From a virus (lineage: Duplodnaviria; Heunggongvirae; Uroviricota; Caudoviricetes), in IMG/VR virus record IMGVR_UViG_2740892235_000012: a DNA stretch of 6,921 bases, one strand, 5' to 3'. Below are positions 2,048 through 6,621 of this stretch, one piece after another. The notes under the pieces are model-generated. The model was given only the letters and a program-made list of their open reading frames with translations. It ran no database searches and was not told the origin of the DNA. Positions within the stretch are counted from its first letter, which is position 1. Each line of letters begins with the position of its first letter. The position numbers and the translations under genes were made by a program.

Positions 2048-2068
2048 CCGGTCAGCCTGGCTGACCGG
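2048..2068 (+). other. Perfect GC-rich hairpin in the FII-E intergenic region (9-bp stem, 3-nt loop)
   Basis: CCGGTCAGC (2048-2056), loop CTG, GCTGACCGG (2060-2068) is an exact inverted repeat. It begins 8 nt after the FII stop and is followed by TTAACCCC rather than a U-tract. Next to it, GGTTAACC (2067-2074) is itself palindromic. Confidence 0.6.
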
Positions 2069-2372: not shown

Positions 2373-2524
2373 CGTTTCCGAAAAATCTCTCGGTCGATGA
2401 CCTGATGGCGGATGTGGCAGTGATATTTCACTGGCCGCCATCAGAACTGTATCCCATGAGCCTGACCGAACTCATCACATGGCGCGAAAAGGCGCTCCGG
2501 CGAAGCGGAAACACGAATGAGTAA
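2097..2524 (+). CDS. E': E+E' fusion protein made by -1 programmed ribosomal frameshift near the 3' end of E, 142 aa
   Basis: Slippery heptamer T TTT TTG at 2345-2351 in the E frame. After a -1 slip the frame runs from GTC at 2351 for 57 codons (VAELGAVTFPKNLSVDDLMADVAVIFHWPPSELYPMSLTELITWREKALRRSGNTNE) to TAA 2522-2524. Total length is 85 + 57 = 142 aa, matching P2 gpE+E' as I recall it. Confidence 0.82.
2345..2351 (+). other. -1 frameshift slippery site (TTTTTTG) for E to E'
   Basis: An X XXY YYZ-type heptamer in the zero frame of E (codons TTT TTG), 21 nt before the E stop. It corresponds to the recoding site described for the P2 tail operon and is analogous to lambda G/GT. Confidence 0.8.
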
Positions 2525-4964
2525 CAATGTAAAATTACAGGTATTGCTCAGGGCTGTTGACCAGGCGTCCCGCCCGTTTAAATCCATCCGCACAGCGAGT
2601 AAGTCGCTGTCGGGGGATATCCGGGAAACACAAAAATCACTGCGCGAGCTGAACGGTCACGCATCCCGTATTGAGGGATTTCGCAAGACCAGTGCACAGC
2701 TCGCCGTGACTGGTCATGCACTTGAAAAGGCACGGCAGGAGGCCGAAGCCCTTGCCACACAGTTTAAAAACACCGAACGTCCGACACGTGCTCAGGCGAA
2801 AGTGCTGGAATCAGCAAAGCGAGCGGCGGAGGACTTACAGGCGAAATATAACCGCCTGACGGATTCCGTTAAACGCCAGCAGCGGGAACTGGCCGCTGTG
2901 GGAATTAATACCCGCAATCTTGCACATGATGAGCAGGGGCTGAAAAACCGTATCAGTGAAACCACCGCACAGCTTAACCGTCAGCGCGACGCACTGGCGC
3001 GTGTCAGTGCACAACAGGCAAAACTTAACGCAGTAAAACAGCGTTATCAGGCCGGAAAAGAACTGGCCGGAAATATGGCCTCAGTGGGCGCTGCCGGTGT
3101 GGGGATTGCTGCTGCGGGAACGATGGTCGGTGTTAAGCTGCTGATGCCCGGTTATGAGTTTGCGCAGAAAAACTCAGAATTGCAGGCTGTGCTCGGTGTG
3201 GCAAAAGACTCCGCCGAAATGGCCGCATTACGCAAACAGGCGCGTCAGCTCGGCGACAATACCGCAGCCTCGGCAGATGATGCAGCCGGTGCGCAGATTA
3301 TTATTGCGAAAGCCGGTGGGGATGTTGATGCCATTCAGGCGGCAACGCCGGTTACACTGAATATGGCGCTGGCGAACCGCCGCACGATGGAAGAAAACGC
3401 CGCCCTGCTGATGGGGATGAAATCTGCCTTTCAGCTTTCAAACGATAAGGTCGCTCATATCGGGGATGTTCTCTCCATGACGATGAACAAAACCGCCGCC
3501 GATTTTGACGGCATGAGCGATGCGCTGACCTATGCCGCACCTGTGGCAAAAAATGCCGGTGTCAGCATTGAAGAAACCGCCGCAATGGTTGGGGCGCTGC
3601 ATGATGCAAAAATCACAGGCTCAATGGCGGGGACGGGAAGCCGTGCCGTGTTAAGTCGCCTGCAGGCACCGACGGGAAAAGCATGGGATGCACTCAAAGA
3701 GCTTGGCGTGAAAACCTCAGACAGCAAGGGGAATACCCGACCAGTATTTACCATTCTGAAAGAAATGCAGGCCAGTTTTGAGAAAAACCGGCTCGGTACT
3801 GCCCAGCAGGCTGAATACATGAAAACCATTTTCGGGGAGGAGGCCAGCTCAGCCGCTGCTGTGCTGATGACTGCCGCCTCAACCGGAAAGCTGGACAAAC
3901 TGACCGCTGCGTTTAAAGCCTCAGACGGGAAGACCGCCGAGCTGGTAAATATCATGCAGGACAACCTCGGCGGTGACTTTAAGGAGTTTCAGTCCGCTTA
4001 TGAGGCGGTGGGGACTGACCTGTTTGACCAGCAGGAAGGCGCGCTGCGTAAGCTCACGCAGACGGTCACAAAGTATGTGTTAAAACTCGACGGCTGGATA
4101 CAGAAAAACAAATCACTGGCGTCAACCATTGGTCTCATTGCCGGTGGCGCACTGGCGCTTACTGGCATCATCGGTGCCATTGGCCTCGTAGCCTGGCCGG
4201 TTATCACCGGCATCAATGCCATCATCGCGGCAGCAGGCGCAATGGGGGCAATCTTCACGACGGTTGGCAGTGCCGTTATGACGGCCATCGGGGCGATTAG
4301 CTGGCCGGTTGTGGCCGTGGTGGCCGCCATTGTCGCCGGGGCGTTGCTTATCCGTAAATACTGGGAGCCTGTCAGCGCATTCTTTGGCGGTGTGGTGGAA
4401 GGGCTAAAAGCGGCATTTGCGCCGGTGGGGGAACTGTTCACGCCACTTAAGCCGGTGTTTGACTGGCTGGGTGAAAAGTTACAGGCCGTGTGGCAGTGGT
4501 TTAAAAACCTGATTGCCCCGGTCAAAGCCACACAGGACACCCTGAACCGTTGCCGTGACACGGGCGTCATGTTCGGGCAGGCACTGGCTGACGCGTTAAT
4601 GCTGCCGCTTAATGCGTTCAACAAACTGCGCAGCGGTATTGACTGGGTACTGGAAAAACTCGGTGTTATCAACAAAGAGTCAGACACACTTGACCAGACC
4701 GCCGCAAGGACTAATGCCGCCACGTATGGCACCGGTGGTTATATTCCGGCGACCAGCTCTTATGCAGGCTATCAGGCTTATCAGCCGGTCACGGCACCGG
4801 CTGGTCGCTCTTATGTGGACCAGAGTAAAAACGAATATCACATCAGCCTGACGGGCGGTACTGCGCCAGGGACACAGCTCGACCGCCAGTTACAGGATGC
4901 ACTCGAAAAATACGAGCGGGATAAACGTGCGCGCGCCCGTGCCAGCATGATGCATGACGGTTAA
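2517..4964 (+). CDS. T: Tail tape measure protein (P2 gpT homolog), 815 aa
   Basis: A very long ORF directly after the E/E' chaperone pair. The N-terminal roughly 180 residues are heptad-rich and alpha-helical in character (Q/A/R/E/L rich), the middle carries a long Gly/Ala/Ile-rich hydrophobic segment, and the 815-aa length matches P2 gpT. The ATG at 2517 overlaps the E' stop; stop is TAA 4962-4964. Confidence 0.93.
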   Translation: MSNNVKLQVLLRAVDQASRPFKSIRTASKSLSGDIRETQKSLRELNGHASRIEGFRKTSAQLAVTGHALEKARQEAEALATQFKNTERPTRAQAKVLESAKRAAEDLQAKYNRLTDSVKRQQRELAAVGINTRNLAHDEQGLKNRISETTAQLNRQRDALARVSAQQAKLNAVKQRYQAGKELAGNMASVGAAGVGIAAAGTMVGVKLLMPGYEFAQKNSELQAVLGVAKDSAEMAALRKQARQLGDNTAASADDAAGAQIIIAKAGGDVDAIQAATPVTLNMALANRRTMEENAALLMGMKSAFQLSNDKVAHIGDVLSMTMNKTAADFDGMSDALTYAAPVAKNAGVSIEETAAMVGALHDAKITGSMAGTGSRAVLSRLQAPTGKAWDALKELGVKTSDSKGNTRPVFTILKEMQASFEKNRLGTAQQAEYMKTIFGEEASSAAAVLMTAASTGKLDKLTAAFKASDGKTAELVNIMQDNLGGDFKEFQSAYEAVGTDLFDQQEGALRKLTQTVTKYVLKLDGWIQKNKSLASTIGLIAGGALALTGIIGAIGLVAWPVITGINAIIAAAGAMGAIFTTVGSAVMTAIGAISWPVVAVVAAIVAGALLIRKYWEPVSAFFGGVVEGLKAAFAPVGELFTPLKPVFDWLGEKLQAVWQWFKNLIAPVKATQDTLNRCRDTGVMFGQALADALMLPLNAFNKLRSGIDWVLEKLGVINKESDTLDQTAARTNAATYGTGGYIPATSSYAGYQAYQPVTAPAGRSYVDQSKNEYHISLTGGTAPGTQLDRQLQDALEKYERDKRARARASMMHDG

Positions 4965-4978
4965 GGAGGTGACGAAAA

Positions 4979-5458
4979 ATGATGCTCGCGTTAGGTATGT
5001 TTGTTTTTATGCGCCAGACGCTGCCACACCAGACCATGCAGCGTGAATCAGATTATCGCTGGCCGTCAAATTCCCGTATCGGTAAACGGGAGGCCTACCA
5101 GTTTCTCGGTGTGGGTGAGGAAAACTTGACGCTGGCCGGTGTGCTTTATCCCGAACTGACCGGCGGCAAGCTGACGATGACCACGCTCAGGCTGATGGCA
5201 GAGGAAGGCCGGGCGTGGCCGTTGCTGGATGGCACAGGCATGATTTACGGCATGTATGTCATCAGCAGGGTGAGTGAAACAGGGAGTATTTTCTTTGCAG
5301 ACGGCACACCCCGGAAAATTGATTTTACGCTGTCACTCACCCGCGTGGATGAATCACTGGCCGCGCTTTATGGCGATATCGGTAAACAGGCGGAGTCGCT
5401 CATCGGTAAGGCCGGTAGTCTGGCGACCAGATTCACGGGTATGACGGGGGCGGGATAA
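4979..5458 (+). CDS. U: Tail protein U (P2 gpU family), 159 aa
   Basis: Strong RBS AAGGAGGT at 4963-4970, 8 nt before the ATG at 4979. The protein (MMLALGMFVFMRQTLPHQTMQRESDYRWPSN...) and its 159-aa length match P2 gpU. Stop is TAA 5456-5458. Confidence 0.9.
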   Translation: MMLALGMFVFMRQTLPHQTMQRESDYRWPSNSRIGKREAYQFLGVGEENLTLAGVLYPELTGGKLTMTTLRLMAEEGRAWPLLDGTGMIYGMYVISRVSETGSIFFADGTPRKIDFTLSLTRVDESLAALYGDIGKQAESLIGKAGSLATRFTGMTGAG

Positions 5459-6621
5459 TGCTGGATGCGCTGACATTTGATGCAGGCAGTACGCTGACGC
5501 CGGATTACATGCTGATGCTCGACAGCAGGGATATTACCGGCAATATCAGTGACCGTCTGATGAGCATGACCCTGACGGATAACCGGGGCTTTGAGGCTGA
5601 CCAGCTTGATATTGAACTGAACGATGCCGACGGGCAGGTCGGGCTGCCGGTTCGTGGCGCTGTCCTGACGGTGTATATCGGCTGGAAAGGTTTTGCCCTG
5701 GTATGCAAGGGGAAATTCACCGTTGATGAGGTTGAACACCGGGGCGCACCGGATGTGGTCACCATCCGCGCCCGGAGTGCAGATTTTCGTGGCACGCTCA
5801 ATTCCCGCCGGGAAGGCTCCTGGCATGACACCACGCTCGGTGCGATTGTTGAGGCGATTGCCTCCCGTAACAGGCTGGAAGCCAGTGTCGCTCCGTCACT
5901 GGCAGGAATTAAAATCCCGCACATCGACCAGTCGCAGGAGTCCGATGCGAAATTCCTGACCCGTCTTGCTGAACGCAACGGCGGTGAGGTGTCGGTAAAA
6001 ATGGGAAAACTGCTGTTTCTCAAAGCGGGGCAGGGGGTGACGGCCAGCGGTAAAAAAATCCCGCAGATTACCATCACCCGCAGCGACGGCGACCGTCATC
6101 ATTTTGCGATTGCTGACCGTGGAGCCTACACAGGCGTAACGGCAAAGTGGTTACACACCAAAGACCCGAAGCCACAAAAGCAGAAGGTAAAACTGAAACG
6201 CAAAAAGAAAGAGAAACACCTGCGCGCACTGGAGCACCCGAAAGCGAAACCGGTCACGCAGAAGAAAGCGCCAAAAGTACCGGAAGCGCGCGAAGGTGAA
6301 TACATGGCCGGTGAGGCTGACAATGTTTTTGCCCTGACCACGGTATATGCCACGAAAGCGCAGGCCATGCGCGCCGCTCAGGCGAAGTGGGATAAACTGC
6401 AACGGGGCGTTGCGGAGTTCTCCATCAGCCTGGCTACCGGTCGTGCAGATATTTACACGGAAACACCGGTTAAAGTGTCAGGCTTTAAGCGCGTCATAGA
6501 CGAGCAGGACTGGACAATCACTAAGGTGACACATTTTCTGAATAATAGCGGCTTCACGACGTCCCTGGAGCTTGAGGTCAGGCTTTCTGATGTGGAGTAC
6601 GAAACAGAAGATGATGAGTGA
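5458..6621 (+). CDS. D: Tail protein D (P2 gpD / Phage_GPD family; baseplate hub-like, related to the VgrG N-terminal domain), 387 aa
   Basis: The ATG at 5458-5460 overlaps the U stop (TAATG). The 387-aa length and sequence match P2 gpD by recollection, including an internal lysine-rich segment. Stop is TGA 6619-6621. Confidence 0.92.
   Translation: MLDALTFDAGSTLTPDYMLMLDSRDITGNISDRLMSMTLTDNRGFEADQLDIELNDADGQVGLPVRGAVLTVYIGWKGFALVCKGKFTVDEVEHRGAPDVVTIRARSADFRGTLNSRREGSWHDTTLGAIVEAIASRNRLEASVAPSLAGIKIPHIDQSQESDAKFLTRLAERNGGEVSVKMGKLLFLKAGQGVTASGKKIPQITITRSDGDRHHFAIADRGAYTGVTAKWLHTKDPKPQKQKVKLKRKKKEKHLRALEHPKAKPVTQKKAPKVPEAREGEYMAGEADNVFALTTVYATKAQAMRAAQAKWDKLQRGVAEFSISLATGRADIYTETPVKVSGFKRVIDEQDWTITKVTHFLNNSGFTTSLELEVRLSDVEYETEDDE

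Follow-up and report, generated by a model that had tools for sequence, protein, structure and literature searches.

A conserved hairpin between the tube and chaperone genes of P2-type phages as the putative counterpart of the phage 186 partial terminator tI

The late tail operon and its single long spacer

The window, i.e. the whole 6921-base stretch of DNA analyzed here, covers in full the late tail operon of a phage of the P2 type (genus Peduovirus). Over positions 1500–2550 (1,051 bases compared) its identity was 98.7% to phage P2 and 99.7% to the P22H1 isolate, and the genes were identified by homology to the annotated P2 record. The features are, in window coordinates:

319–1509, + strand: FI, tail sheath gene, with which the upstream high-copy segment opens (its length of 1191 nt matches P2 FI and the P22H1 record)
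1522–2040, + strand: FII, tail tube gene, with a strong Shine-Dalgarno sequence (AAGGAG) and a TGA stop codon at 2038–2040
2041–2047, + strand: linker UUUUCAU, 7 nt, U-rich and G-free, between the FII stop codon and the stem
2048–2056, + strand: 5' arm of the hairpin, CCGGUCAGC (from sequence, folding and covariation)
2057–2059, + strand: triloop CUG (from sequence and folding)
2060–2068, + strand: 3' arm of the hairpin, GCUGACCGG; most relatives carry GCUGGCCGG instead, giving a U·G wobble
2069–2082, + strand: tail UUAACCCCGAUUC, pyrimidine-rich and G-poor, with no U-tract (from sequence)
2086–2093, + strand: weak but accessible Shine-Dalgarno region of E, GUGAGAAA (duplex energy -5.0 kcal/mol)
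2097–2372, + strand: E, tail assembly chaperone gene, with which the downstream low-copy segment (E, E+E', T, U, D) opens
2517–4964: T, by homology to the P2 record
4979–5458: U, by homology to the P2 record
5458–6621: D, by homology to the P2 record
Right-hand end of the window: ogr, by homology to the P2 record

By the same homology, E also yields an E+E' frameshift product. For FI, the mechanical open reading frame begins at the first ATG, at 286; the ATG at 319, which has GGAG upstream, was taken as the true start from the homology to P2 and P22H1, in which the gene is 1191 nt long. An inverted repeat, GGTTGG...CCAACC, lies at 221–251, where the P2 record puts the Ogr activator site of the PF promoter, a placement judged from the offset to the FI start. 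No exact TGT-N12-ACA match was present at 221–251, and the only one in the window falls inside FI (1044–1061). A terminator-like match at 2324–2351, consisting of a stem at 2324–2345 followed by TTTTTT, was rejected as a terminator: it is really the slippery sequence of the E/E' -1 frameshift, T_TTT_TTG at 2345–2351, in agreement with the site annotated in P2.

Contractile tails generally contain many sheath and tube copies per virion and few copies of the chaperone, tape-measure and tail-tip proteins. The spacer between FII and E is 56 nt long, whereas all other junctions within the operon (FI–FII, E'–T, T–U and U–D) are close-coupled, with spacers of at most 14 nt or overlaps. The FII–E spacer is the sole long spacer of the F operon and is located exactly at the boundary between the high-copy and low-copy genes.

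A stable hairpin without a U-tract follows the tube gene

The initial annotation had described a perfect 9-bp, GC-rich hairpin lacking a U-tract in this spacer, a description borne out by the sequence, a repeat search and folding. The hairpin, CCGGTCAGC-CUG-GCUGACCGG (2048–2068), has a perfect 9-bp stem with 7 of 9 pairs G-C and a 3-nt loop; in DNA form it reads CCGGTCAGC (2048–2056), CTG (2057–2059) and GCTGACCGG (2060–2068). The repeat search found the arms at 2048–2057 and 2059–2068 to be 100% complementary. The hairpin begins 7 nt past the FII stop codon and finishes 28 nt before the E start codon. Folded alone (2044–2072), it had an energy of -16.5 kcal/mol, made up 81% of the ensemble and scored z = -5.0, and none of 200 dinucleotide shuffles folded as well, so that the folding check proposed in the initial annotation came out in the hairpin's favor. 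By our own estimate, which was not computed with a tool, perfect stems of this kind would occur by chance about 0.16 times in 6.9 kb and about 0.001 times in the 56-nt spacer; the real evidence that the hairpin is not a product of chance is its conservation, described below.

The stem-loop is on the transcribed strand, and its stability (-16.5 kcal/mol) and G-C content (7/9 pairs) are those of an intrinsic terminator. A U-tract immediately 3' of the stem is absent: the tail directly following it, UUAACCCC (DNA TTAACCCC), holds 2 U (T) in 8 positions. A consensus terminator scan of the window did not call the hairpin at 2048–2068. The covariance models of Rfam 15 gave no relevant match to it, even at E-values up to 10, and it is not a REP element. 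RNase III sites need about 20 bp or more of double-stranded RNA, and we rejected an RNase III processing site, as the stem is too short for one (9 bp here, 7–12 bp in relatives). The adjacent palindrome that the initial annotation took to add to the local symmetry, GGTTAACC, is indeed present at 2067–2074, but it cannot fold on itself and is limited to certain lineages, with 186-type phages having GGTTATTA in its place; the claim of added symmetry did not hold.

The hairpin is conserved in most of the P2 family

Tube-gene loci were gathered from genome and viral collections, which gave 311 unique tube-to-E junctions; at 80% identity of the tube proteins, these fell into 48 clades. A hairpin was called when a perfect stem of -9 kcal/mol or better was found within 72 nt of the tube stop codon. 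Such hairpins were present in 84% of the 311 junctions, compared with 5% of shuffles (an enrichment of about 17-fold) and 9–11% of adjacent coding sequence, and were the typical state in 34 of the 48 clades. The conservation across P2-like phages that the initial annotation had named as a further check was hence found.

P2, L-413C, a Klebsiella phage, PSP3, Midge and 613R3 all carry a hairpin at the same site, and Erwinia ENT90 has one there with a different stem. In phiCTX, KL3, KS14, 4LV2017, RE2010, YenM31.17 and Shewanella M16-3, the G-C-rich hairpin just past the tube gene is built from unrelated stem sequences. In a minority of clades, the tube-to-E site holds a canonical terminator, with a hairpin and a T-run. 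The 136-nt tube-to-chaperone spacer of Shewanella phage M16-3 (locus L015, 1461–1598) contains three successive hairpins, the first of which is a canonical terminator, GCCCGCA...TGCGGGC followed by ATTTTTTAATT.

The hairpin was absent from about nine clades, all with short spacers (roughly 25–40 nt), and from Burkholderia phage Mana, whose spacer measures 24–30 nt depending on the ATG chosen as the E start. Natural variants without a hairpin after the tube gene, Mana among them, were found at loci L146, L064, L157 and L009. In L146, a close relative, tube stop and E start share the sequence ATGA, and L064 and L157 have spacers of 26–30 nt and a stronger Shine-Dalgarno sequence (GGAGAG). Given these several lineages, the hairpin is common but dispensable, and these natural variants that lack it could act as controls for its contribution. 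Two further loci, L094 and L095 (Acerihabitans sp. TG2), start like the other junctions (TAATTTTCCCCGG) and part from them within the hairpin's 5' arm, and their contigs stop about 200 nt beyond the divergence point. The divergence may reflect an insertion or rearrangement at the hairpin, or else a break in the assembly.

Equivalent junctions in other phages leave no room for a hairpin, with spacers of 15 nt between V and G in lambda and 9 nt between M and gp41 in Mu. The element is therefore a trait of the P2 family and not of tailed phages in general. A general rule for long-tailed phages was likewise rejected, the lambda and Mu spacers and the 3-nt N–M spacer of P2 all being too short.

Base pairing is maintained on the mRNA strand

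Covariation was assessed in 90 unique Enterobacterales junctions aligned with MAFFT, with no structure supplied. In this alignment, 89.3% of the cells were paired, compared with 11–44% when the 3' partner was slid by 1–3 columns, and both-sided (compensatory) changes were seen in 7 of 10 pairs; none of 500 shuffles matched the observed pairing and covariation values. The central pair was U·G in 53 junctions, C-G in 29 and U-A in 6, the last being the rare form carried by the window. Over the nine core pairs, G·U outnumbered A·C by 77 to 14. The hairpin of P2 itself has energies of -15.9 kcal/mol on the sense and -11.8 kcal/mol on the antisense strand, and over all junctions the sense strand was more stable by 3.4 kcal/mol on average.

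The stem in the window is a perfect palindrome whose two strands fold alike (-16.5 vs -16.9 kcal/mol), as might befit a protein-binding site or cruciform in the DNA, or a structure on the antisense strand. In most relatives, however, the central U·G reads as a mismatched C·A on the opposite strand, which breaks the palindrome, and no upstream A-run is present to serve as an antisense U-tract. Given the asymmetry between the strands, neither a palindrome in duplex DNA nor a structure of the antisense strand can be the feature under selection. Structure and position also persist while the stem sequences are unrelated between clades, which, like the excess over shuffles, speaks against these readings and against a lack of function. 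We regard this whole group of readings as very improbable. What the comparison shows to be conserved is an RNA element, formed on the mRNA strand. As a less likely possibility, the favored U·G wobble at its center could mark recognition by a nuclease or an RNA-binding protein rather than being neutral.

Correspondence to the partial terminator tI of phage 186

The phage 186 record (NC_001317) contains the feature "tI; partial terminator of pJ transcript" at 15906–15932, between the tube gene I, an FII homologue that ends at 15898, and H, an E homologue that starts at 15960. Its sequence is ACCGGTCAGC-ACT-GCTGGCCGGT-TATT. Aligned from stop codon to start codon, the 186 and window spacers showed 80% mean column identity and shared the stem core CCGGTCAGC / GCTG(G/A)CCGG. 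The two elements thus occupy the same site, flanked by the tube gene and the E homologue, and have the same stem core (CCGGUCAGC / GCUGGCCGG). They lie in operons of the same layout, in which an Ogr/B-activated late promoter precedes sheath, tube, E, E', tape measure, U and D. They differ in the central pair (U·G in tI, U-A in the window), in the loop (ACU vs CUG) and in stem length, the 186 stem reaching 12 bp through two flanking pairs that the window lacks. The tail also differs, UUAUUACC in 186 and the less U-rich UUAACCCC in the window. Judged by its position, alignment and stem core, the hairpin is the P2-type orthologue of phage 186 tI.

The same 186 record marks another terminator as "predicted" and tI not, which suggests that the tI label has an experimental basis in 186. 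Six terminators and one attenuator are annotated in the curated P2 record, none of them in the FII–E spacer, and the closest records to the window also carry no annotation of the hairpin. Besides the FII–E hairpin, a census of the P2 genome gave no strong hairpin separating co-directional genes within a late operon. The literature that we searched contained no transcript mapping for the P2 F operon or P2-type tailocins, and a paper on P. aeruginosa 3' ends does not mention the pyocin genes.

Canonical terminators of these phages, such as the P2 ogr/F-operon terminator and 186 tB, resemble the window element in being G-C-rich sense-strand hairpins directly past a gene. They have 5–7 U after the stem, whereas the window hairpin is followed by UU and then AACCCC. 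The operon-end terminators of P2 and 186 have runs of 5–7 T that tI and the window hairpin lack, which points to partial rather than full termination at the latter.

P2 contains another hairpin of related design, an 8-bp triloop hairpin without a U-tract inside lysC, GCTGGCAC-GCT-GTGCCAGC (NC_001895, 8399–8417; locus L177), annotated in the P2 record as "putative transcription attenuator; O operon". Like the window element it is a G-C-rich triloop hairpin in a P2 late operon, and it precedes tail-completion genes of lower copy number; it differs in lying within a coding sequence rather than in a spacer.

How transcript 3' ends might form at the hairpin

The initial annotation had proposed that the stem-loop sets the stoichiometry of the tail proteins as a partial terminator, a protective 3' end or a translational barrier. 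This general reading is supported by the annotation of tI in 186, by conservation on the sense strand throughout the family and by the position of the hairpin at the high-copy/low-copy boundary. The explanation that we favor, with a probability of roughly 0.6, is that the hairpin acts like 186 tI, with a fraction of the late transcripts ending there and FI–FII mRNA being more abundant than downstream mRNA. Under this model, some of the PF transcripts would stop at the hairpin, the others extending through E, E', T, U and D. Intrinsic termination of low efficiency, aided by the UU after the stem, would create the ends, and the G-C-rich stem would then shield the FI–FII message from 3'-to-5' exonucleases, however the end arises. 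We infer that transcripts of the present phage may end in this manner, with a consequent effect on protein ratios.

Several observations argue against such termination. Intrinsic termination should be weak with the tail UUAACCCC, whose 2 U in 8 make it even poorer than the 186 tail UUAUUACC. Counted after trimming of weak base pairs at the stem foot, at least 5 T in the 8-nt tail were found for only 42 of 261 hairpins (16%), and several lineages have no hairpin. Moreover, P2 sets the ratio of the capsid protein N to the terminase subunit M without a hairpin, over a spacer of 3 nt.

Low U content is expected if the hairpin is purely protective. In E. coli, Rho-dependent transcripts end just past stable terminator-like stem-loops with reduced U, no upstream A-tract and a mild excess of C over G downstream, and these stem-loops protect the RNA against PNPase and RNase II (Dar & Sorek 2018, PMC6061677). 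With its stable stem, reduced U and lack of an upstream A-tract, the window hairpin has the properties of such stem-loops, which it also resembles in G-C content, in its terminator-like size and energy and, in the pooled data, in an excess of C over G just downstream; it differs from them in being located within an operon, 28 nt before the next translated gene, and not at the end of a transcription unit. Polymerase would then read through, 3' ends would be made downstream by Rho acting on poorly translated E–T RNA or in the spacer by RNase E cleavage, and PNPase and RNase II would shorten the RNA as far as the hairpin, so that a stable FI–FII message remained while the downstream RNA decayed faster. 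The pooled composition in the Enterobacterales set fits this pattern (8-nt tail T.38, C.39, A.19 and G.04; the bases preceding the stem pyrimidine-rich, with an A content of.12), as do the 172 of 261 hairpins (66%) with at most 3 T in the 8-nt tail. The pooled C/G ratio was about 5 at 0–10 nt after the stem and 1.25–1.5 at +30 to +120, compared with 0.8 upstream in the tube gene. The weak Shine-Dalgarno sequence of E, treated below, would suit Rho as well.

However, in the window itself C/G at 2097–2200 is only about 0.9, and E starts 28 nt past the stem, which leaves little untranslated RNA for Rho loading. The 186 curators named the orthologue a terminator, and true U-tracts occur at the same site in some clades. 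A purely protective stem is, in our judgment, possible but doubtful. The stricter version, in which the element is a protective 3' stem throughout the family, with no terminator, and the ends come from Rho on weakly translated E–T, seems unlikely. If it were true, tail-gene stoichiometry in P2-type phages would be Rho-dependent and could shift when the satellite phage P4 expresses the Rho inhibitor Psu.

A weak E ribosome-binding site at the same junction

The Shine-Dalgarno duplex energy in the window is -5.0 kcal/mol for E and -8.4 kcal/mol for FII. Over 126 junctions, the mean energies were -4.1 kcal/mol for E and -7.8 kcal/mol for the tube gene (p = 1e-21). A translational step-down hence acts at the same FII–E junction, the Shine-Dalgarno sequence of E being systematically weaker than that of the tube gene. 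Together with partial termination as favored above, the mRNA excess and the weaker E ribosome-binding site would match the many sheath and tube copies and the few copies of the other tail products.

In the minimum free energy structure of the window spacer, UUUUCAU (2041–2047) pairs with the E Shine-Dalgarno sequence. Sequestration of the ribosome-binding site was nevertheless rejected, as the unpaired probability of the E Shine-Dalgarno sequence was 0.63, compared with 0.58 in flank-shuffled controls (122 junctions), i.e. it was more accessible than the controls, and the stem ends 28 nt before the ATG. The part of the initial proposal that invoked a translational barrier consequently does not stand where the barrier means occlusion of this site.

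In a different kind of barrier, the hairpin would stop ribosomes leaving FII from sliding on and starting anew at E, whose translation would then depend solely on its own weak site. This idea draws on the geometry of the spacer. The base of the stem lies 4–8 nt past the stop codon in 106 of 112 unique Enterobacterales junctions and its end 28–33 nt upstream of the E ATG in 107 of 122; the spacer itself measures 54–63 nt in 119 of 131, and 67 of the 112 Enterobacterales relatives have a 3-nt loop. The close coupling of all the other junctions (FI–FII, E'–T, T–U, U–D) and the weaker Shine-Dalgarno sequence of E are also in line with insulation of E. In distant clades, however, the stop-to-stem distance ranges from 2 to 37 nt, and the hairpin does not touch the accessible E Shine-Dalgarno sequence. 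Insulation also leaves the full terminators at the same site in some clades and the 186 annotation unexplained, and we consider it improbable.

Implications for tail-protein stoichiometry

Partial termination at the hairpin would account, at the RNA level, for how one promoter supplies unequal amounts of tail proteins. The idea is old, in that a partial terminator is already recorded for phage 186, and intercistronic hairpins that adjust the ratios of mRNAs from one operon, among which this one falls, have long been known. What is added here is that the P2 records omit the element, that its structure is conserved across most of Peduoviridae and that most versions have no U-tract. This last feature puts the focus on how the transcript 3' ends form. 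In practice, the element is of use in genome annotation and in the engineering of P2-type tails and tailocins, where deleting or keeping the FII–E spacer could alter expression ratios.

Other repeats in the operon

A second copy of the 3' arm, GCTGGCCGGT, lies at 2324–2333 in gene E, beside the frameshift site. The 8-mer CTGGCCGG, which matches the 3' arm of the hairpin in most relatives, has seven coding-strand copies in the window, at the following positions:

168, 882, 2325, 3063, 4193, 4301 and 5132

In P2, there are 8 plus-strand and 2 minus-strand copies. Alternative pairing of the hairpin with GCTGGCCGGT in E was considered and rejected as coincidence, given that CTGGCCGG recurs 7 times and that this recurrence is unconserved beyond the closest clades. 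The copies are probably an effect of Leu-Ala-Gly codons, none of them linked to the hairpin.

Inside E', a perfect 10-nt inverted repeat, CTGATGGCGG / CCGCCATCAG (2402–2411 and 2435–2444, with a 23-nt gap), lies about 50 nt past the frameshift site and 73 nt before the T start. Both arms are the same in P2, a Klebsiella phage and PSP3. Among 116 unique relatives, the changes fell at codon wobble positions and at least one pair was broken in 54; since broken pairs were almost never compensated, we rejected the repeat at 2402–2444 as an RNA structure, and it looks driven by the coding sequence.
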